This document shows, one piece after another, positions 19,985 through 60,517 of a stretch of DNA of 64,000 nt; position 1 is the stretch's first letter, and each line of letters begins with the position of its first letter. Under the pieces are notes generated by a model that did not search any database, was not told the origin of the DNA, and saw only the letters and a program-made list of their open reading frames with translations. A program made the translations under genes and the position numbers. The stretch spans positions 32,001-96,000 of the forward strand of contig CAJWHW010000002.1 of NCBI GenBank assembly GCA_913040915.1, read 5' to 3'. Source of the DNA: an uncultured Fidelibacterota bacterium. GTDB lineage: Bacteria; Fidelibacterota; Marinisomatia; Marinisomatales; UBA1611.

Positions 19985-20920
19985 TCAGTCCAAAATTTCC
20001 GGTGGTTTTGTATGAATTGGTGTACTATAAGCAGTACTTTCAAGTCCAGCGTTTTTAAATGTATTCACCATTATTAGTCCTATTTTCTCCGCAGTCTCTA
20101 TTGAATCTGATAAAGCGAAAATAGCAGGCCCAGAGCCAGAAATACCGCAGCCGATTGCCCCGGCATCTATTGCGGATTGTCGAACAGATTTGTAACCGGG
20201 TATAAGTTCTGCTCGAACAGGTTCAGCAAAAAGATCCACCATTGAACGGCTCAAAAGATCAAAATCAGATTTATGAAGGCCTAAAGTAAAACCTGCCAAG
20301 TTTCCGGCCTGCTCAACTGCAGATTTTAAAGAAACTCGTTTAGGTAGCATACGCCGTGCGTCAAGAGTATTCACGCTAAAATCAGGTAATACTGCTGTAC
20401 TGAATAAATTTTTTGGAACTGGTAAATTCAGAACATCTAAAGGTTCATAACTGCGAATCAGGATGATTCCGCCGAAAAGAGCAGGTGCAATATTATCTGC
20501 ATGTAATCCACCCGATGCAACTGCTTCTCCTGCCATACCATGAGCTAACAATTCACTATTTTTGAATGGATTATTCAATAATTCATTTAAACCCACAACA
20601 GCTGCAGCTGCACTGGCAGAACTAGAACCCAACCCGCTTCCTGGTGGAATACCTTTTTCAATATGAACCTTAAATCCTTGATTACTACCCAAAGTATCAA
20701 GAAAAGATAATATAGCTTTACCTGCAGTATTATTTTCAGGATTAACAGGGATTGATTCATATTTTATACCCGAAATTGAAATTTCTATTACCGATTTTTC
20801 ATGTTTTTTAATTGTAACAATATCTCCCGGTTTTGTAATGGCGTAACCAATACAATCAAAACCGCAAGATACGTTAGCGACTGAAGCCGTTGCTTGGACT
20901 CGAATTGAATTATTGAACAT
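19985..20920 (-). CDS. thrB: Homoserine kinase
   Basis: ASVANVSCGFD, KGIPPGSGLGSSSAS (GHMP motif), HADNIAP, ISGSGP; likely start ATG 20920. Confidence 0.95.
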   Translation of the reverse strand: MFNNSIRVQATASVANVSCGFDCIGYAITKPGDIVTIKKHEKSVIEISISGIKYESIPVNPENNTAGKAILSFLDTLGSNQGFKVHIEKGIPPGSGLGSSSASAAAAVVGLNELLNNPFKNSELLAHGMAGEAVASGGLHADNIAPALFGGIILIRSYEPLDVLNLPVPKNLFSTAVLPDFSVNTLDARRMLPKRVSLKSAVEQAGNLAGFTLGLHKSDFDLLSRSMVDLFAEPVRAELIPGYKSVRQSAIDAGAIGCGISGSGPAIFALSDSIETAEKIGLIMVNTFKNAGLESTAYSTPIHTKPPEILD

Positions 20921-22016
20921 GGATATATCCTTTTTGAACAAGTAGTTCTGCCATAAGAATGGCACCACCAGCGGCACCTCGAACTGTATTGTGCGACAAT
21001 CCAATAAATCGAATATTAAAAAACATATCCTCTGTTATTCGCCCAACTGTTACAGTCATGCCATTTCCCAAATCTCGATCTAATTTAGGTTGGGGACGAT
21101 CTATTTCATCCAAAACAATAATAGGAATTTTTGGGGCTGATGGGAAATGCATAGCTTGTGGTTCTCCTATAAATGAAGATAAAATTAATTTGAACTCATC
21201 TATAGTAGGGGCAATATCAACAAATCCAATATGTACTACAGCAGTATGTCCATCTATTACTGGTACACGTGTACATACTGCATTTATAGCTAATCCCTTG
21301 AATTGCTCAATACCGCTTTCCGTTACTTCACCAAATATTTTTAATGGTTCTTTTTCTGTCTTTTCTTCTTCTCCACCAATATAGGGTACAACATTATCTT
21401 TTAAATCTGGATTGGTTAATGCTTTATAGCCAGCACCTGACAATGCTTGAAGGGTGGTCACTTGTACGCGATCCACCGGAAACCCTGCTTGTTTTAATGC
21501 TTCTAAAACAATAATATATGATTGAATTGAACAATTAGGTTTAACTGCTACAAAACCAGAGTTTGGTAAATTTCGAATCATCTGTTGGATAGGAATCACC
21601 TCTGCATGATGAGGATTTATTTCAGGAATGATCATAGGTACATCACGGGTTTGACGATTAGCAGAACTAGTGGAAATAACAGCGTATCCTTTTTTTGCAT
21701 ACCCAAATTCAAAATCACGTGTATCCTGTTTTTTTTGTAAGTCTAACGCAGAAAATACACAGACTACATCCTCAGGTATTGATTCAAAATCATTCACATC
21801 CCGAACAATCAAGTTAGCAATTGAATCAGGAATCTGTGTATCTATAGCCCATTTCTCACTAGTTGCTTCCCTGTAAGTTTTTCCGGAAGAATGCTTGGAT
21901 GCAGCAACGTCTATAACGTCAAACCATGGGTGGTTTTCCAATAATTTTAAGAAGTTTTGACCGACCATTCCAGTAGCACCTAAAACACTTACTTTAATAT
22001 TTTTTTTTAGTAACAT
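20910..22016 (-). CDS. asd: Aspartate-semialdehyde dehydrogenase
   Basis: LGATGMVGQ, HPWF, PEINPHH, KPNCS (catalytic Cys), RVPVIDGH, HNTVRGAAG. Confidence 0.96.
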   Translation of the reverse strand: MLLKKNIKVSVLGATGMVGQNFLKLLENHPWFDVIDVAASKHSSGKTYREATSEKWAIDTQIPDSIANLIVRDVNDFESIPEDVVCVFSALDLQKKQDTRDFEFGYAKKGYAVISTSSANRQTRDVPMIIPEINPHHAEVIPIQQMIRNLPNSGFVAVKPNCSIQSYIIVLEALKQAGFPVDRVQVTTLQALSGAGYKALTNPDLKDNVVPYIGGEEEKTEKEPLKIFGEVTESGIEQFKGLAINAVCTRVPVIDGHTAVVHIGFVDIAPTIDEFKLILSSFIGEPQAMHFPSAPKIPIIVLDEIDRPQPKLDRDLGNGMTVTVGRITEDMFFNIRFIGLSHNTVRGAAGGAILMAELLVQKGYIHVQ

Positions 22017-24391
22017 TTTAAAATATCTCCTAATACACCAGCAGCAGTGACTTCAGCTCCGGCACCATGTCCTTTTATAACCATGGGGGTATCTTTATAT
22101 CTTTTAGTCGTAAACATAATAAAGTTTTCACGTCCATTTTGATGATAAAAAGGGTTTTTAATTCCCACTGCTTTCAATTTCACTGTTACATTTTGCCCAT
22201 CCCAGGTGGCAATATATCGTAACGCCTTATCCTCTCTAGAAGCTGAAATATACATGTTTAAAAATTGGTCATCATATTTGGATAATTGCTCTAAAAACTC
22301 ATCAATGGAAAATGCCGGATCCATATTTTCTGGAATTAAGCTTTGAATAGATACATCATCAAACTCTAATTGTGCACCAGTCTCTCGGGCCAAAATGAGA
22401 ATTTTTCTTCCCACATCCACACCATTCAAGTCATCTCTTGGGTCTGGTTCTGTGTACCCGTTTTCCTGTGCATATTTTACCAACTTACTAAATGCAATTG
22501 AACCATCAAATCGACTGAATAAATAGCTTAGCGTCCCAGACATAATTCCTTCAATTTTTTCAACTGTATCACCTGTTGCCAATAAAGTTTGTAATGTTTC
22601 AACAATAGGGAGACCTGCGCCAACATTTGTTTCATATTTAAATTGAGAACCGGCAGCATTTGAATTTTCACGAATTAAATCATAATAATTCTGATTCATG
22701 GAATTGGCCAGTTTGCTAGCAGATACAACAGAAATTCCTTTTTTTAAAATGTTTGCTATTTTTTTTGCGATTATAGGTGATGATGTTACATCCACAAATA
22801 CGGGGTTAAGAGACTGAGCTGCATAAGAAATAAATGATTCTAAATCGACTGTATCACCACTTGCTAATTCTTCTACATAATTTTGGGAATCTAATCCATT
22901 TGGATTAATAATCATTTTTTGACTATTTATTATACCGCATATATTTATGGAATTATTATCCTGAATTAACTTTATTAAATCTGAGCCAACCAACCCAACC
23001 CCAGCAATAAATACATTTATAATAGCATTGTTTGAAAAAATATATTGATGCAAAGATCGAATGGCTGATTTGACTTCATCATTTTTAATAATAAAGGATA
23101 TATTTCTTTCCGAAGATCCTTGAGCAATAGCAACCACATTCACATTTTTTTCTCCAAGAACGGAAAATAGTTTCCCGGAAATTCCAGGTGTATGGCGCAT
23201 CCCCTCGCCTACAACAGCAATGAGAGAAAGATCATTTTCAATATTAATAGTATCTATAAAATGGTTTTTCAGTTCAAACAAAAATTCTTTCTTCAAAAGT
23301 GATTCAGCTAGATCAACTTCTTTAGGTTGGATAGCAAAACAAATGGAATGCTCGCTAAACACTTGAGATACAAGAATAATATTTATTTTCTTTTTGGCTA
23401 GTGCATCAAATACACGTCCAATAACTCCAAAACGTCCCACCATACCGGCTCCTTGGAATCGGATTAAGGAAACATTATACAAAGATGAGATACCCACGGC
23501 AAAATGGTCATCCCTTGCACGGTCCTGTGTAATAGCCGTTCCTGGATTATCCGGTTCAAATGTATTTTTAATACGGATCGGAATAGATTTATATAAAGCA
23601 GGAATCATAGTGGGTGGGAAAATAACTTTTGCCCCGGCATGAGCCAATTCCATGGCTTCTTCATAAGTAATATGAGAAATGGTTTTTGCATCAAAAACCA
23701 CATTGGGATCGGCAGACAAAATACCGTTTACATCAGTCCAGATTTCTATTTCATTTACATCTAAAGCAGCGCCAAAAATGGATGCGGTATAGTCTGAACC
23801 GCTCCTTCCAAAAGTTGTTGTTTCTCCTAATTCAGTGGCACCAATGAATCCAGTAATTATCCTTGTTTTTGATTCATCTTTCCATTCATTACGAATATTA
23901 TTGTAAGATTTTTGATAATGAACAAATGCATTTCCGAAATGATCATCTGTTAAAATAACCTTTCGCGCATCCAAATATGTTGCATTTATTCCTTTTTCGA
24001 TACATACTTCCGTAATAATTATTGCAGATAATTGCTCACCAATACTTAGTGCTGCATCTTTTAATTGCAGTGTACATTTTTTCTTTTTGGCAATTGTACT
24101 TAATATAAGACATAATTCATTTTCTATTTCTTGGATAGTATTAAACAATAGTTCTTTTTCAAGATGAAGATCATGAATAGTTTTCCGATGCCTATCAAAA
24201 AACAATTGTAAATCATTATTATAATCAGCGTCCCGTTCTGCACATGAGATTAATTGAATGAGTTGATCCGTAATGCCACCAAACGCAGATACAACTACAC
24301 CACATGGATGTTCAGATGAAATAAGCTGCACCACTTGCTCAATTCGTTGGGACGTTTTTACGGATGATCCGCCAAATTTGAGAATTTTCAT
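22007..24391 (-). CDS. thrA: Bifunctional aspartokinase/homoserine dehydrogenase
   Basis: KFGGSSV, GRSGSDYTA, WTDVNG, two ACT domains, GVGLVG, YETNVGAGLP, GYTEPDPRDDL. Confidence 0.96.
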   Translation of the reverse strand: MKILKFGGSSVKTSQRIEQVVQLISSEHPCGVVVSAFGGITDQLIQLISCAERDADYNNDLQLFFDRHRKTIHDLHLEKELLFNTIQEIENELCLILSTIAKKKKCTLQLKDAALSIGEQLSAIIITEVCIEKGINATYLDARKVILTDDHFGNAFVHYQKSYNNIRNEWKDESKTRIITGFIGATELGETTTFGRSGSDYTASIFGAALDVNEIEIWTDVNGILSADPNVVFDAKTISHITYEEAMELAHAGAKVIFPPTMIPALYKSIPIRIKNTFEPDNPGTAITQDRARDDHFAVGISSLYNVSLIRFQGAGMVGRFGVIGRVFDALAKKKINIILVSQVFSEHSICFAIQPKEVDLAESLLKKEFLFELKNHFIDTINIENDLSLIAVVGEGMRHTPGISGKLFSVLGEKNVNVVAIAQGSSERNISFIIKNDEVKSAIRSLHQYIFSNNAIINVFIAGVGLVGSDLIKLIQDNNSINICGIINSQKMIINPNGLDSQNYVEELASGDTVDLESFISYAAQSLNPVFVDVTSSPIIAKKIANILKKGISVVSASKLANSMNQNYYDLIRENSNAAGSQFKYETNVGAGLPIVETLQTLLATGDTVEKIEGIMSGTLSYLFSRFDGSIAFSKLVKYAQENGYTEPDPRDDLNGVDVGRKILILARETGAQLEFDDVSIQSLIPENMDPAFSIDEFLEQLSKYDDQFLNMYISASREDKALRYIATWDGQNVTVKLKAVGIKNPFYHQNGRENFIMFTTKRYKDTPMVIKGHGAGAEVTAAGVLGDILKCY

Positions 24392-24465
24392 TTTAATACT
24401 AATTAAATAGGTTTATCGTTAGTCGAAATATTACGGTTAATAAAAGTTTTACATGCTAAAAAGTG

Positions 24466-24645
24466 CTAATTGGAAATCAAAATATTACCAAATTCCTTTA
24501 ATGAGAATAGGTTCACAGCATGATCCGCATTGTTGAATATATATGATGTTGAAGAAAAAATTCGGACTGCTCTAGCGTTTGTGCCTGCCATCGGTTCCTG
24601 CCTGGTATGGAACTGTAATTTATCAAAATGATTATTATTGCACAT
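24466..24645 (-). pseudogene. metY: 5' stub of O-acetylhomoserine sulfhydrylase (MetY family)
   Basis: Manual translation MCNNNHFDKLQFHTRQEPMAGTNARAVRIFSSTSYIFNNADHAVNLFSLKEFGNILISN* matches the MetY N-terminal pattern FETLQLHAGQEP..TGARAVPIYQTTSYVF..ADHAANLFALKEFGNIY; SD TAAGGA upstream; stops after 59 aa. Confidence 0.8.
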
Positions 24646-24786
24646 AGATATTTTTCCTTATTTTGTGTTATTTATTGGTTTGTTACTAATATTTATGAAT
24701 TAGTTATTCATAATAAATACAAAACGTAATTGATAGCTTGTTGGGATAATATGTTAGAGGGCAAGAGACATTACAGCAGTATCTGT

Positions 24787-24897
24787 CTTATCAGTCTTCT
24801 AAAAAACTCGAAGCAGGAATTAGCACCTTGAACCGCATTGTACGGAGATGGTTGCTAAGGTATCTTAGGGCCTGATCCCTCCACCTTTCTGGATAAA
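24787..24897 (-). ncRNA. SAM-I (S-box) riboswitch
   Basis: Minus strand reads UUAUCCAGAAAGGUGGAGGGAUCAGGCCCUAAGAUACCUUAGCAACC...AAGGUGCUAAUUCCUGC...GAUAAG: AUC/GAU P1, GAGGGA..GGCCC, GCAACC and GGUGCUAAUUCC hallmarks. Confidence 0.93.
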
Positions 24898-24940
24898 ATC
24901 CGGTACTGATCTGTCAAAAAGCATAAAAAACTTCTTTTAA

Positions 24941-24969
24941 ATGTTAAATATGAAAATAAAATAATGCAA
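24941..24969 (-). promoter_or_regulatory. Candidate sigma70 promoter upstream of the SAM-I riboswitch
   Basis: TTGCAT-17 bp-TAACAT on the minus strand. Confidence 0.5.
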
Positions 24970-25092
24970 GATAACATTAATATATTTAACTATACTCCAT
25001 CATTTTCTATAATTTTTTTATAAATAAAAGGAATATGATTTATATTTGAATGTTGCCCTTTATAAGAATTTGTTATAAACTTTTAGCCAATT

Positions 25093-25176
25093 ATGAACAT
25101 ACGACGACGCCATAACCATCATCTTAACACTTTGATTAATAACAATAATAATATGAGTGGGGGCGAAGCTTTGTAA
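25093..25176 (+). CDS. Asn-rich leader peptide MNIRRRHNHHLNTLINNNNNMSGGEAL
   Basis: Manually translated 27-aa ORF with 8 Asn (5 consecutive), directly before a terminator and asnB. Confidence 0.8.
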   Translation: MNIRRRHNHHLNTLINNNNNMSGGEAL

Positions 25177-25196
25177 CCATAAGGTTAAGCTTTAAT

Positions 25197-25236
25197 AAAA
25201 ACCTCCAGGGATTTTAATTCATGGGGGTTTTTTTTT
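25197..25236 (+). terminator. Attenuator terminator upstream of asnB
   Basis: AAAACCTCCA...TGGGGGTTTT stem running into a T9 tract, 23 nt before the asnB ATG. Confidence 0.85.
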
Positions 25237-25259
25237 ATATCAAATAAAAGGAAAAAATT

Positions 25260-26849
25260 ATGTGTGGCATATTTTTATATAAAGGTAGAAAACAAGATTG
25301 GAATTCATTGGAACCTGATATTAAACGGATTGGTTATCGCGGCCCAGATAATACACACCATGAAATGATTGGCAATGATATATTATTAGCTTTCCATCGA
25401 TTAGCTATCATGGGCACAAGTGAAATGGGCGATCAACCGATGAAACATCCCAATGATGCTTCGCTCACTCTGATCTGTAATGGTGAAATTTATAATTATA
25501 AAAATTTAGCTAAAAAATATAGCTTTAATTTGAAGACAGGCTCTGATTGTGAAATTATTTTATTCATGTTTAAACAATTTGGTATTCAAAGAACTGTAAA
25601 GGAATTAGATGGCGTTTTCATGTTCGTATTATATGAAGCAAATACTGGTCTACTTTTTGCTGGCCGGGATCCCATGGGTGTTCGTCCGGGGTTTATCGGT
25701 CGAAATGGAGATGAGATTATGATTGCATCAGAAGCAAAATCCATGGTGAATCATTCTTCAAGTATTATTCCATTTCCCCCAGGGCATTGGTGGTGTTCGA
25801 ACCTTTCAGATATATTCAATCCTTATTTTCTTTATAATAAAATCAAAATTCAAGAAAACACCGAAGAAGATATTTGTAATAAAATCCAGTTATTATTAAC
25901 AGCTGCAGTTAAGAAACGGCTTATGACAGAACGTGATATTGGGTGTTTATTATCTGGTGGTTTGGATTCGAGTTTAATTTGTGCTCTTGTGAATAAGTAT
26001 TATGAAGGACCAAAACTAAATACATTTTCTATTGGACTTGTAGGGAGCATTGACCTTGAATATGCACAAGATGTGTCCTCTCATTTGAAATCAAAACACC
26101 ACCAGATAGAAGTATCTCAAAATGAGTTTTTAGATGCAATTGAAACTGTGATTTATAATATTGAATCTTATGATACTACTACAGTCAGAGCCAGTGTAGG
26201 CAATTACCTCGTTTCAAAATATATTTCAGATAATTCTGATTGCAAGGTGATTTTTAACGGTGATGGCAGTGATGAGGTATGTTGTGGATATGTATATTTA
26301 AGGAATGCACCATCACCAGTTGATTTGCAAAAAGAAAATGAAAGGCTGGTTGAAGAGATTCATTATTTTGATGTGCTGCGCTCAGACCGCAGTATTAGTT
26401 CTAATGGTTTGGAAGCACGGACGCCTTTTTTGGATAAAACATTTGTGAAGTATTATTTATCAATTCCTGCGGAATTAAAGTTATTTGATGGGGCACAAAG
26501 ATTAGAAAAATATTTATTAAGAAAAGCTTTTGATGATCAGGGACTTTTACCAGATAAAGTTTTATGGCGTCGGAAATGTGCTTTTTCAGATGGTGTAAGT
26601 TCGCAGAATAATTCCTGGCATCATATTATCCAATCATTTGTAGACCAAAAAATTAGTGATGAAGAATTTCAGCGAGAAAGCACTAAGATCACACATTGCA
26701 CTCCTCAATTAAAAGAGAGTTATTACTATCGTAAAGTATTCAATAGCTTCTTTGAGAATCATGAGAATTTAATTCCTCATTTCTGGATGCCTAAGTGGTC
26801 CAATACGATAGACCCTTCAGCTAGAGAATTAAGTGGGTACAAAGAATAA
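25260..26849 (+). CDS. asnB: Asparagine synthetase B (glutamine-hydrolysing)
   Basis: N-terminal MCGI (Ntn Cys), RGPD, HRLAI, CNGEIYN, LLSGGLDSSL, GDGSDE, RTPFLD. Confidence 0.96.
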   Translation: MCGIFLYKGRKQDWNSLEPDIKRIGYRGPDNTHHEMIGNDILLAFHRLAIMGTSEMGDQPMKHPNDASLTLICNGEIYNYKNLAKKYSFNLKTGSDCEIILFMFKQFGIQRTVKELDGVFMFVLYEANTGLLFAGRDPMGVRPGFIGRNGDEIMIASEAKSMVNHSSSIIPFPPGHWWCSNLSDIFNPYFLYNKIKIQENTEEDICNKIQLLLTAAVKKRLMTERDIGCLLSGGLDSSLICALVNKYYEGPKLNTFSIGLVGSIDLEYAQDVSSHLKSKHHQIEVSQNEFLDAIETVIYNIESYDTTTVRASVGNYLVSKYISDNSDCKVIFNGDGSDEVCCGYVYLRNAPSPVDLQKENERLVEEIHYFDVLRSDRSISSNGLEARTPFLDKTFVKYYLSIPAELKLFDGAQRLEKYLLRKAFDDQGLLPDKVLWRRKCAFSDGVSSQNNSWHHIIQSFVDQKISDEEFQRESTKITHCTPQLKESYYYRKVFNSFFENHENLIPHFWMPKWSNTIDPSARELSGYKE

Positions 26850-27025
26850 ATTATTTAATTATATTAATAATAAAATAAAATATATTTATTATTTGTTAAA
26901 TTAAATTAAATGAATAATATTATAGACAGGAAATAATTAAAATAATGTACGATACTGCAATAAATAAAATTAGCATTACGGGGATGAAGCCAATTGGGCT
27001 TTGTGACCGCGAAATTCTATGCCAA

Positions 27026-27112
27026 ATGGTTACTATATTGCAATCCATTATTCGGTACCTAAGTATATCAATTTTGGTACTTATTATTACCTTCGCCGTT
27101 TTGATCGCCTAG
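27026..27112 (+). CDS. Ile/Leu/Val-rich leader peptide MVTILQSIIRYLSISILVLIITFAVLIA
   Basis: 16 of 28 codons are Ile, Leu or Val; upstream of the ilv-leu operon; in-frame ATGs also at 26945 and 26984; 3' end is one arm of a long hairpin. Confidence 0.7.
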   Translation: MVTILQSIIRYLSISILVLIITFAVLIA

Positions 27113-27255
27113 TTAAAACAAATACATTCAGGTGATTCAAACGGTGAAAAAACTCTCCCCGATTAATTAGTCCATCCCTGAAGTATCTAATCTGGCAATT
27201 CGAACTGGTAAAATAGTTTGCGTAGTATTTATTGTTGCGTTGAAAAAGGGACTTG

Positions 27256-27338
27256 ATGAGTTTAGATCAAATAAAGTAGGATTTGAACATGCGTCCCACA
27301 GAAGCCCTTTGCGGGCTGCGAGCACAGTATTAAAGTAG
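27256..27338 (+). pseudogene. ilvD: Degenerate 5' stub of dihydroxy-acid dehydratase
   Basis: SD AAAGGGA plus ATG 27256, then in a shifted frame RSNKVGFEHASHRSPLRAASTVLK*, resembling the IlvD N-terminus RSDxxKxGFERAPHRSLLRA. Confidence 0.6.
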
Positions 27339-27345
27339 TGGAGAC

Positions 27346-29073
27346 ATGAAAATGGAAAAACGAACTCTAACAGGAGCAGAAATTATTTGGGAATGTGTGA
27401 CTAAAGAAGATGTGGGTGTGGTTTTTGGATATCCAGGAGGTGCAATCCTACCGGCATATGATGCTTTGAATAATTATCGGGATAAAATTCACCATGTGTT
27501 AGTGCGCCATGAACAGGGCGCGACACATATGGCTGATGGGTATGCACGTGCTAGTGGAAATGTGGGGGTAGCTATAGCGACATCAGGACCAGGAGCAACC
27601 AATATGGTCACAGGTTTGGCTACTGCAAAATTAGATTCTGTCCCCATTGTATGTATTACAGGTCAAGTTCCCCGGACTGCCATTGGATCAGATGCGTTTC
27701 AAGAAGTAGATATTTATGGTACAGTTTTTCCGGTGACAAAACATAGTTATTTAGTTATGGATATAAAAGACTTGGCCCCAACTATTAAGGAAGCATTTGC
27801 AGTGGCACGTTCCGGTAGGCCTGGTCCGGTTCTGATTGATATCCCTAAAGATATCCAAACTGAAACAATAGAATTTATTTATCCCAGTGAGCCTGTGAGA
27901 TTGCCGGGAAATAATAAACTACAAATCTCCACTGAAAAACAAATTAACGATGCAATCAACTTAATAAATAATGCAAAAAAACCAGTTATTCTTGCAGGAC
28001 ATGGTATTCTTCTATCTGGCGCTTCTCGAGAAGTGATAAAATTGGCAGAAACTGCATCAATTCCCATTGGCTGGACTTTATTGGGTTCAGGAAGTGTCCC
28101 TGCCAGCCACCCACTGAATATGGGTATGATGGGCATGCATGGCGAATTTGCAGTGAATAATGCGATCCAAGATGCGGATCTATTAATTGCCTGTGGAATG
28201 CGTTTTGATGATCGTGTTACAGGTAATGTAAAAACCTATTCACCCAATTCAAAAAAAATTCACATTGAAATTGATCCATCAGAAATCAATAAGAATGTCC
28301 CTGCCGATGTAGGTATTGCCGGAGATCTACGAACTATTTTACTTCAACTTCTTCCGTTGGTAAAACAACGGAAAAATGAAGACTGGCTTAAAATAATTTC
28401 TTCTTGGCAATCTGAATCTATGGAAAGAGATATCATCAATGTCCAAACAGATACCCTCTACGGGGCCCAAGTGATTCGTGATATCTGGAAAGAGACCAGG
28501 GGTGATGCGCTTATTGTAACAGATGTAGGCCAGCACCAAATGCTTGAAGCACAGTATTATGCTCATGAAGAGCCCAACACATTATTAACCTCTGGTGGTT
28601 TGGGGACGATGGGTTTCAGTTTACCGGCGGCAATAGGTGCTAGTTTCACAAATAGAAATAAAGATATTTGGGTTATTGTCGGAGATGGTAGTATCCAGAT
28701 GACAATTACTGAATTGGCTACTGCAGTACAAGAGAATGCTAATATAAAAATTGCCATAATTAATAATGGTTACTTGGGCATGGTTCGTCAGTGGCAGCAG
28801 CTATTTTATGATGCCCGTTATGCTGAAACACCCATTAGTAGCCCCGATTATTTAAAGATTTCAGAGGCGTATGGTCTGCCAGGCCATAGGGTACAAACCC
28901 GTGCTGAGATTCCTAATGTAATTAATATGGCAAAAAAAAATGAAGGCCCCGTCCTTATAGAGTTTGTAGTGGAGCAACATGATATGGTTTATCCTATGGT
29001 GCCAGCTGGCGCTGATTTGAATGCTATGATCAACAGGCCGAAAAATAAGCAATTTCAAGAAATAGAAGAATAA
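27346..29073 (+). CDS. ilvB: Acetolactate synthase large subunit
   Basis: FGYPGGAILP, RHEQGA, TSGPGATN, RFDDRVTG, TDVGQHQM, GDGS TPP motif. Confidence 0.97.
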   Translation: MKMEKRTLTGAEIIWECVTKEDVGVVFGYPGGAILPAYDALNNYRDKIHHVLVRHEQGATHMADGYARASGNVGVAIATSGPGATNMVTGLATAKLDSVPIVCITGQVPRTAIGSDAFQEVDIYGTVFPVTKHSYLVMDIKDLAPTIKEAFAVARSGRPGPVLIDIPKDIQTETIEFIYPSEPVRLPGNNKLQISTEKQINDAINLINNAKKPVILAGHGILLSGASREVIKLAETASIPIGWTLLGSGSVPASHPLNMGMMGMHGEFAVNNAIQDADLLIACGMRFDDRVTGNVKTYSPNSKKIHIEIDPSEINKNVPADVGIAGDLRTILLQLLPLVKQRKNEDWLKIISSWQSESMERDIINVQTDTLYGAQVIRDIWKETRGDALIVTDVGQHQMLEAQYYAHEEPNTLLTSGGLGTMGFSLPAAIGASFTNRNKDIWVIVGDGSIQMTITELATAVQENANIKIAIINNGYLGMVRQWQQLFYDARYAETPISSPDYLKISEAYGLPGHRVQTRAEIPNVINMAKKNEGPVLIEFVVEQHDMVYPMVPAGADLNAMINRPKNKQFQEIEE

Positions 29074-31842: not shown

Positions 31843-33416
31843 GTGAAAAAATTATAGTATTTGATACAACATTGCGGGATGGTGAACAAGCGCCAGGTGC
31901 ATCCCTCAACGTATATGAAAAGTTGGAAATTGCAAAACAAATGGAGCGACTTAATGTGGATGTTATTGAAGCAGGATTCCCAGTCTCATCGCAAGCACAG
32001 TTTGAAGCTGTCCAGCGGATTGCTGATTCTGTTGATGCAACCATCGCTGGTTTAGCTCGGACAATTGAAGCTGATATAGATGCTTGTAGGAAGGCGTTGC
32101 AAGGTGCTGATCTCTCTCGTATTCATACATTTATTGGCACATCTGATATCCATCTACAGGGAAAATTTGGAGCAGCTCGTTATGGGAAATCACTAAAAGA
32201 GAAAAGAAAGACCATAATGAAAATGGCTCATAATGCGGTTCGATATGCAAAAACATTTACAGATGATGTCGAATTTTCTCCTGAAGATGCAGGAAGAACA
32301 GATATTGGCTATTTATCAGAAGTGATAGAAACTGTTATTTCTGCCGGAGCGACCACTGTGAATATCCCTGACACAACCGGCTACACTATGCCGGAAGAAT
32401 TCGGTGCCAAGATTGCAGAAATAAAAAGTAGAGTGAGTAATATTAATAAAGCTGTGATAAGCGTCCATTGCCACAATGACCTTGGGCTTGCAGTAGCAAA
32501 TTCATTAAGTGCCATATCTAATGGTGCGCGGCAAGTAGAATGCACTATTAATGGCATAGGTGAACGAGCAGGAAATGCCAGTATGGAAGAAATTGTGATG
32601 GCACTTAATGTTCGTTCCAATTTTTGGGATTTTCATACAAATATCAACACCGAAGAAATATATAATACCAGCCGTATGGTTTCTGGGTTTACAGGAATGT
32701 TGGTTCAGCCTAATAAAGCTATCGTAGGAGAAAATGCATTTGCTCATGAATCGGGGATACACCAGGATGGTATGTTAAAGAATAGGCATACCTATGAGAT
32801 TATGACCCCAGAATCGGTAGGCATTGTTAAAAATAAAATTATTTTGGGACGTCACTCAGGCCGCCATGGACTTTCAGCACGTATGGAAGCACTTGGTTAT
32901 GAGATATCAGATGAAAACATGGATAATCTTTATGAGAGATTTTTAGAGTTGGCTGATAAAAAGAAAGAAATTTATGATGAAGATCTCCGGGTACTTATGG
33001 GAGATAAAGCTGAAAGTGATAATGGATTTTATCATCTTGATTATCTCCATGTTAACCTAGGGACTACAACGATTGCTACTGCTACAGTCAGGATTAAATC
33101 TAAAAACAAAATCTGTGAAGAATCAGCAACAGGTGATGGCCCTGTAGATGCTTGTTTTCGTGCGATCAGCCGAGCGATTAATTTCCAAGAGCAGGTAAAA
33201 CTGGAGCATTACCAGGTACGCTCTATTACAGCTGGGAAAGGTGCTCTTGGTGAAGTTACCACTCGTCTAAATATCCTTGGCACCGCATATACAGGAAAGG
33301 GAGTATCCACAGACACGATCCGTGCCAGTGCAAAATCTTACCTGCATGCTCTAAATCATTTTGAGTCCATGAAAGATATGGATAATCTTTTTGAAAAAAT
33401 TACTGAAACTATCTAA
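31839..33416 (+). CDS. leuA: 2-isopropylmalate synthase
   Basis: [39 protein letters not shown]-terminal regulatory domain. Confidence 0.96.
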
Positions 33417-60109: not shown

Positions 60110-60126
60110 GTCACTTATTTTAAATT

Positions 60127-60506
60127 GAGTCGGTTGGATGGTTACTCCTGGCTTACATTAGTAATCTGGGAGAGGAAAGTCCGGGCACTGCAGGACAGGA
60201 TGCTTCTTAATGAGAAGAGGTGTGCTGATGTACATTATGGAAAGTGCAACAGAAAGTAAACCGTCTGCCAACTGGCGGATAAGGGTGAAAAGGTGGTGTA
60301 AGAGACCACCAGATTTTGAGGAAACTCAGAATGCTTGTAAACCCCATCCAGTGCAAGATCATATAGGCTCTAAGATGTTGTTCGCATCGATTTAAGAGCG
60401 GGTAGATTGCTAGATCTTATTGGCGACAATTAGACTAGATGAATGACCATCCAATCAGGTTTGATACGTCAACCTGATGGACAAAACTCGGCTTATAGAC
60501 CGGCTC
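60127..60506 (+). ncRNA. rnpB: RNase P RNA, class A
   Basis: GAGGAAAGTCCGGGCA, GAAAGTGCAACAGAAA, AAGGGTGAAAAGGTGGTGTAAGAGACCACC, GTAAACCCC and ACAAAACTCGGCTTA; P1 formed by GAGTCGGT and ACCGGCTC. Confidence 0.96.
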
Positions 60507-60517
60507 AATTTTTTTAT

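Follow-up and report, generated by a model that had tools for sequence, protein, structure and literature searches.

Is the short, asparagine (Asn)-rich open reading frame (ORF) found just before asnB in an uncultured Fidelibacterota bacterium part of a switch that controls this gene? The question was raised by a stretch of 64,000 nucleotides (nt), hereafter called the window, which corresponds to positions 32,001 to 96,000 of contig CAJWHW010000002.1 (assembly GCA_913040915.1). An initial annotation, made from the sequence alone, had pointed to a candidate Asn-sensing attenuator in front of asnB (25260-26849, plus strand), the proposed regulated gene, which profile matches identify as coding for a glutamine-hydrolyzing asparagine synthetase. 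The host lineage is known as Marinimicrobia, Neomarinimicrobiota or Fidelibacterota, and the genome comprises 1,864,068 bases (35.6% G+C, 85% complete). Our analysis indicates that the asnB leader is very probably a ribosome-mediated transcription attenuator, which senses charged tRNA-Asn and controls asnB. This reading is based on sequence elements, RNA folds, conservation, covariation, geometry and metabolic logic.

Organization of the asnB Leader

All the elements of the leader are on the plus strand. The leader ORF (25093-25176) has 27 codons, including eight Asn codons (25096, 25114, 25126 and five consecutive codons at 25138-25152), and its stop codon is at 25174-25176. The run of five Asn codons, the putative sensor, is at a distance of 108 nt from asnB. 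Downstream of this run, we observed the motif UGGGGG (region 2, 25158-25163, with the G-run at 25159-25163), which would form the 5' strand of an antiterminator, then a nested hairpin (H, 25165-25193) with the stop codon inside, and the motif CCUCCA (region 3, 25202-25207), which is common to the antiterminator and to the 5' arm of the terminator. The intrinsic terminator itself (25197-25236) consists of a stem-loop (25197-25232) and a run of nine T (25228-25236). The ORF with its Asn codons, the terminator ahead of the asparagine synthetase gene, and the pairing of TGGGGG with CCTCCA around a nested hairpin had been described in the initial annotation, and all three were confirmed here. In the terminator stem-loop, a lower stem of 11 bp and an upper stem of 4 bp are separated by a single mismatch, and the loop has 4 nt; its energy of -15.4 kcal/mol (z-score of -3.45) was equaled by only one of 200 shuffles. 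With the terminator 3' arm omitted, UGGGGG paired with CCUCCA around the hairpin at -15.7 kcal/mol. Since the upstream neighbor is divergent and lies behind a riboswitch on the minus strand, the terminator ends no upstream gene and is part of the asnB 5' leader.

We then considered whether the Asn codons could be due to chance. On both strands of the genome, 26 runs of at least four AAY codons (AAT or AAC) were found, and the asnB leader contains the only one with at least five. Two other short ORFs with four-codon AAY runs were without comparable context. As for other Asn genes of the same genome, asnS has no leader, and there are no tRNA genes in the window.

Conservation of the Leader Before asnB

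To determine how far the element is conserved, 29 upstream regions were compared, namely the window and 28 loci with an asnB start. An Asn-rich small ORF (sORF) followed by the G-run, the hairpin and the terminator was present at 22 of the 29 loci, while L020 could not be judged because its upstream sequence is only 39 bases long. A covariance model (R1) built on 20 leaders gave at least 64 bits in 22 of 31 sources. In the order, R1 had matches in 33 of 151 genomes, and all 30 places scoring at least 53 bits directly precede an asnB ortholog. After deduplication, 35 distinct leaders remained among 51 loci, all of them Asn-rich. Of the nine matches with 45 bits or less, seven were inspected; lysW follows three of these, and the remaining four are ordinary terminators downstream of genes.

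The 35 leaders have 287 Asn codons (204 AAT and 83 AAC) among 1,023, compared with 36 AAA or AAG lysine (Lys) codons, which are a single third-position change away from AAT and AAC. The background in the long ORFs of the genome is 5.7% Asn and 6.3% Lys. Of the 420 codons at the 12 positions that precede the G-run, 225 are AAT or AAC. The start codon ATG and an in-frame stop codon are kept in all 35 leaders despite their differing sequences, and the Asn runs persist through heavy turnover of the leader sequence. The initial annotation had named AT-rich noise as the finding that would undo its proposal. This objection failed, as the sORF is conserved and its AAY run of at least five codons is the only one in 1.86 Mb.

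All 35 leaders also keep the G-run, which begins at codon position 1 in 17 of them and at codon position 3 in the other 18. Its conservation in two reading frames indicates a constraint on the RNA and not on the peptide. The distance from the end of the G-run to the stop codon is 8 to 11 nt in every leader. In the clade closest to the window (L001 to L012), the peptide is longer (33 to 35 codons) and has a conserved 5' half with a small hairpin, the arms of which covary as judged by eye. The 5' half of the window leader is unrelated to that of L001 to L012 and is without their small hairpin. The His and Arg codons located there had been suggested as further inputs in the initial annotation, but this half of the peptide occurs in this genome and in none of the relatives, and we rejected these codons as extra sensors.

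Terminator, Antiterminator and Stop-Codon Hairpin

The alignments of the leaders, made with MAFFT and with the covariance model (A1, A3), did not place the G-run, some of the C-run and hairpin H in consistent columns between the two leader clades. For this reason, the antiterminator pairs were counted with an anchor-based script, and the count on A3 was used for the terminator and the outer part of H only. The terminator pairs were canonical in 391 of 420 cells (93%) over the 35 leaders, compared with fractions of 0.37 to 0.72 when the partner was slid. A3 is itself an alignment fitted to the structure; in it, 87.2% of the cells pair versus 77.0% in shuffles, and 9 of 16 pairs have changes on both sides; the observed values were reached by none of 500 shuffles. 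RNAalifold recovered just six terminator pairs.

Hairpin H has an energy of -9.5 kcal/mol in the window (z-score of -3.8). The stop codon is inside this hairpin in 35 of 35 leaders, which have 18 distinct 5'-arm sequences and a mean z-score of -2.5. Changes on both sides were present in its helices 1 and 2, according to the pair count on A3. The initial annotation had proposed to search relatives for a conserved Asn-rich sORF with synonymous AAT/AAC variation and for covarying hairpins. We found the conserved sORF and the synonymous variation as well as covariation in the stop-codon hairpin and the terminator.

The antiterminator was predicted in all 22 truncated leader folds, with duplex energies from -9.6 to -19.5 kcal/mol at the 22 loci. 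Duplexes formed by the two strands of the same locus had an energy of -14.0 kcal/mol and were better than cross-locus duplexes (-13.0 kcal/mol), with a permutation p of 0.005 that overstates the support since the loci are related. Over the 35 leaders, the antiterminator core was canonical in 191 of 210 cells, compared with fractions of 0.30 to 0.78 with the partner slid. One clear compensation, from U-A to C-G, was observed in one lineage, along with a few G-U changes. The leaders of the second clade have another small hairpin directly before the G-run, in which an Asn-Ala codon pair faces a Gly/Ser-Val codon pair; we read its two sides as probably changing together.

Ribosome Position and the Proposed Mechanism

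We modeled the position of the ribosome by folding each leader up to the point before the terminator 3' arm emerges, and counted as a success an antiterminator probability above 0.5. When the ribosome occupied the main run's first Asn codon, the antiterminator was predicted in 35 of 35 leaders, compared with 23 of 35 when it occupied the last one. With the ribosome at the stop codon, it was predicted in none of the 35 and the G-run was always covered; the G-run ends 8 to 11 nt before the stop codon, so a terminating ribosome would mask it. Over all leaders, 261 of 286 Asn codons were permissive in the model.

Without a ribosome, the antiterminator was predicted to form in 24 of 35 leaders, while upstream sequence sequestered the G-run in the other 11, including the window. 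In minimum free energy (MFE) folds of the untranslated window leader, the lineage-specific region 1 (25108-25118), a predicted anti-antiterminator, pairs with the G-run (25158-25165). The window is thus predicted to have a classical 1:2 pairing and most of its relatives are not. Because of this pairing of 25108-25118 in the absence of translation, the 5' half of the window leader more likely acts as RNA.

Leader translation, stalling, their kinetics and the regulatory outcome are what we infer from these data. Transcription would start somewhere upstream of 25093, and a ribosome would translate the leader ORF. With ample Asn-tRNA, this ribosome would reach the stop codon at 25174, inside H and 10 nt past the G-run, where it would melt H and cover UGGGGG (25158-25163). 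The C-run (25202-25207) could then pair with 25222-25227 to form the terminator, and the RNA polymerase would halt at the T-run, short of asnB. Under a shortage of Asn-tRNA, the ribosome would stall in the first part of the Asn run (from 25138 on), with its front edge not reaching the G-run. H could then form and UGGGGG could pair with CCUCCA, so that the 5' arm of the terminator would be taken and transcription would read through into asnB. For an untranslated window leader, sequestration of the G-run by 25108-25118 is predicted to cause termination; the same safeguard is not predicted in most relatives. The comparative data and the geometry thus support the switch put forward in the initial annotation, in which stalling would allow read-through and full translation would lead to termination.

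Asparagine Synthetase and Asparagine Supply

The protein encoded by asnB has the domains Asn_synthase and GATase_7 and passes the cut-off of TIGR01536 (354.8 bits, cut-off of 267.1). With PRK09431 it scores 496.8 bits, just under the cut-off of 499. No other AsnB of this genome exceeds the cut-off. The initial annotation had asked whether this genome has asnS or only gatCAB. The asparaginyl-tRNA synthetase (AsnRS) is present (486.1 bits, cut-off of 342.6), and neither GatB nor AsnA was found in the genome, which is 85% complete. With AsnRS present, AsnA and GatB not found and a single AsnB, the charging of tRNA-Asn would report free asparagine, the product of asnB.

Related Leaders Before lysW

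The three weak R1 matches before lysW (38 to 45 bits) precede lysW-lysX operons, whose proteins pass their profile cut-offs (LysW, 65.1 bits versus a cut-off of 53.2; LysX, 329.7 bits versus 275.6). In two genomes, the lysW leaders (L092, 547-697; L095, 468-618) align codon by codon with asnB leaders and share with them the small hairpin, the G-run, the stop-codon hairpin and the terminator, while Lys and arginine (Arg) codons replace the Asn codons. In two more lineages, lysW is preceded by sORFs that are rich in Arg/Lys or in Lys. The lysW-lysX leaders with the shared scaffold and Lys/Arg-rich sORFs were seen in L092, L095, L096 and L097 as well as in L088 and L093 near position 1500, and in L088 the gene argH is located just upstream of the leader.

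On sequence grounds, the lysW leaders are candidate Lys/Arg attenuators. Their codon swap, seen in few genomes, fits a scaffold with its specificity set by the codon run, and would support codon sensing in the asnB leaders. We can extend this to an attenuator chassis of the Marinimicrobia, composed of the small hairpin, the G-run, the stop-codon hairpin and the C-run terminator, that would be re-programmed by codon-run exchange (Asn for asnB, Lys/Arg for lysW-lysX) and that would mostly work as a two-state device, without 1:2 pairing and with read-through as the untranslated default. We consider this extension to be evenly balanced between right and wrong. If true, it would be the leader-peptide counterpart of specifier-codon switching in T-boxes.

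Evidence Against the Attenuator and Alternative Explanations

Several observations weigh against an Asn-sensing attenuator. Six of the 29 loci with an asnB ortholog lack the element (L009, L021, L023, L026, L027 and L031), as do all 20 distant asnB-like genes (36 to 42% identity) inspected in other classes of this phylum, and the leader counts are not independent since the loci are related. The near-invariant G:C composition of the antiterminator helix makes its covariation support thin, and a control with the partner slid by +1 still pairs 78% of the core cells. The antiterminator fold of the window is unexceptional when taken alone (z-score of -1.38, with 18 of 200 shuffles as good), and among the 22 loci folded, the window has the weakest antiterminator (-9.6 kcal/mol) and terminator (-15.0 kcal/mol) duplexes. 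A simple terminator scanner returned no site in 24300-25400 and missed the terminator hairpin, presumably on account of the interior mismatch. A sigma-70 promoter scan gave 7 sites versus 7.1 expected, which is at chance level, and no Shine-Dalgarno sequence is evident before the leader ORF. The ribosome model assumes a footprint of -15/+12 nt around the A-site codon, borrowed from Escherichia coli, and finds only four of the eight Asn codons of the window permissive. In the clade of the window, the G-run would already be masked by a ribosome that occupies the final Asn codon of the run, so only early stalls would be productive. No RNA data set was listed for 24400-27300, and three metatranscriptome contig sets searched with 24700-26000 gave no match, results that are neutral for every reading. 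Four of the six loci without the Asn leader (L021, L023, L026 and L027) have in common a conserved AT-rich block upstream of asnB, which may be a different control region.

The limited covariation of the antiterminator helix leaves room for a real attenuator that is set by a cue other than tRNA-Asn, such as the general rate of translation, its coupling, a protein, or a small molecule that binds the leader RNA, with the Asn codons as a by-product. The model is compatible with this, as the antiterminator is the default without a ribosome in 24 of 35 leaders and any slowing of leader translation would then give read-through. However, a by-product would not readily account for 287 AAT/AAC codons versus 36 AAA/AAG codons, for Asn runs that outlast heavy sequence turnover, or for the homologous lysW leader, in which the Asn run was lost and Lys/Arg codons were gained, and no Rfam riboswitch or T-box was matched in the leader region. 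We regard this explanation as unlikely. An RNA switch independent of translation, which would bind a tRNA or a ligand while the sORF stays untranslated, would agree with the lack of a visible Shine-Dalgarno sequence and with the chance-level promoter scan. It would leave unexplained why ATG and an in-frame stop codon occur in 35 of 35 leaders though their sequences differ, why the distance from the stop codon to the G-run is fixed, and why third-position changes within the Asn run are synonymous; moreover, the leader matched no T-box or other RNA family even at E-values up to 10. Such a switch appears very unlikely.

Two other explanations concern the sORF itself. Lasso-peptide cyclases are homologs of asparagine synthetase, and the lasso-cyclase model NF033535 gave a weak match (136.3 bits), which could suggest that the sORF encodes the precursor of a ribosomally made and post-translationally modified peptide (RiPP) of the lasso type and the AsnB-like protein its cyclase. 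This match is far under the cut-off of 525, while the asparagine synthase model TIGR01536 passes. A terminator also stands between the sORF and asnB, and the peptides are conserved only in the Asn run and in the nucleotides that form RNA helices; we consider the lasso explanation extremely improbable. The G+C content of 35.6% and the frequency of short ORFs in the region could also favor a chance AT-rich ORF beside an unrelated terminator. Against it, the AAY run is unique in the genome, the element precedes asnB at all 30 strong model matches, and the upstream gene is divergent. Chance is refuted as far as the comparative data go, and we give this explanation next to no weight. An Asn-sensing attenuator is the reading that we retain.

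Genomic Context and Other Observations

The divergent neighbor upstream of the asnB leader encodes a bifunctional aspartokinase/homoserine dehydrogenase (22007-24391, minus strand). This gene is led by an S-adenosylmethionine (SAM) riboswitch (24785-24899, minus strand; 73.8 bits versus a gathering threshold of 44.4), and the next gene is asd (20910-22016, minus strand). On the other side of asnB, an sORF of 55 codons (26945-27112, plus strand) precedes ilvB (27346-29073), and its tail is very rich in isoleucine, leucine and valine codons. Similar sORFs of approximately 50 codons with such a tail were observed 3' of asnB in L001 to L003, L006 and L008 to L011. Judged by its sequence, the sORF at 26945-27112 may encode a leader peptide for branched-chain amino acids; no canonical terminator with a T-run was seen 3' of it in the window. 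An RNase P RNA of bacterial class A was also identified (60126-60511, plus strand; 272.3 bits).

Additional features were noted at other asnB loci. Compared with the near-identical L018, L013 carries an insert of about 170 bases between the terminator and asnB (approximately 1310-1480, by eye), which has terminal inverted repeats and looks like a miniature transposable element within the leader. Genome bin G285 has two copies of asnB on different contigs (L078 and L089), each with a different Asn leader, which could represent a real duplication or a mixed bin. An asnB match in G184 (C1:33545-34972, 56% identity) has eight in-frame stop codons (two TGA, one TAG and five TAA) and is probably a pseudogene.

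Comparison With Known Systems and Significance

Among the founding examples of gene regulation is attenuation by leader peptides, which is known for a restricted number of amino acids. The classical cases include hisL of the his operon, with its consecutive histidine (His) codons, as well as trpL, pheL, leuL, thrL and ilvL/ivbL. The asnB leader resembles trp/his-type attenuators in its layout, with a leader ORF rich in codons for the end product, mutually exclusive antiterminator and terminator structures and then a biosynthetic gene, and in its proposed logic, in which a stalled ribosome would give read-through and a completed leader would give termination. It differs from them in reading Asn and in its occurrence in the Marinimicrobia. 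Another feature that sets it apart is the stop codon in a conserved hairpin nested within the antiterminator. In addition, the 1:2 anti-antiterminator was predicted in only 11 of 35 asnB leaders, and most of them look like a simpler design with read-through as the modeled default.

The asnB leader has no sequence or structure homology to His_leader or Phe_leader. No Rfam 15 family reached its threshold on the leader, where the best scores were those of His_leader (RF00514, 24.4 bits versus 49) and Phe_leader (RF01859, 20.7 bits versus 55). Only the SAM riboswitch and RNase P passed over the whole window, and no T-box was among the 13 matches obtained at E-values up to 10 in 24300-25400. Genes for asparagine supply are thought to be under AsnC-type proteins or T-boxes. 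T-box leaders with an Asn specifier precede asnS and asnA in Firmicutes, and asnA of E. coli is controlled by AsnC. Like the asnB leader, these systems govern asparagine supply in response to asparagine or uncharged tRNA-Asn. Their mechanisms differ from it, being based on direct binding of tRNA by the leader RNA or on a protein regulator.

Comparative genomics has also led to leader peptides beyond the classical amino acids and phyla. These include a cysteine-codon upstream ORF attenuator (uORFC-8-2) before cysS in Rhodobacterales (PMC8632094) and 14 predicted leader peptides in Deinococcus deserti (PMC4007540). As described there, these systems resemble the asnB leader in the way that they were found, but they have other specificities and other genes. 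The words Asn and asparagine had no occurrence in the main texts of PMC8632094 and PMC4007540, and no relevant one in the passages of PMC2965389 that were searched. No Asn-specific leader-peptide attenuator was found in Rfam 15 or in the full-text literature searched, which did not cover subscription journals.

A conserved Asn version in an uncultured and globally abundant marine phylum would extend this mechanism to a new amino acid and a new lineage. The Asn leader would also provide an independent functional annotation, according to which AsnB supplies asparagine for translation, and it may serve as a compact and portable Asn-responsive reporter switch. Finally, the lysW homolog suggests that the specificity of such leaders may be swapped by exchanging codons while the RNA scaffold stays the same.

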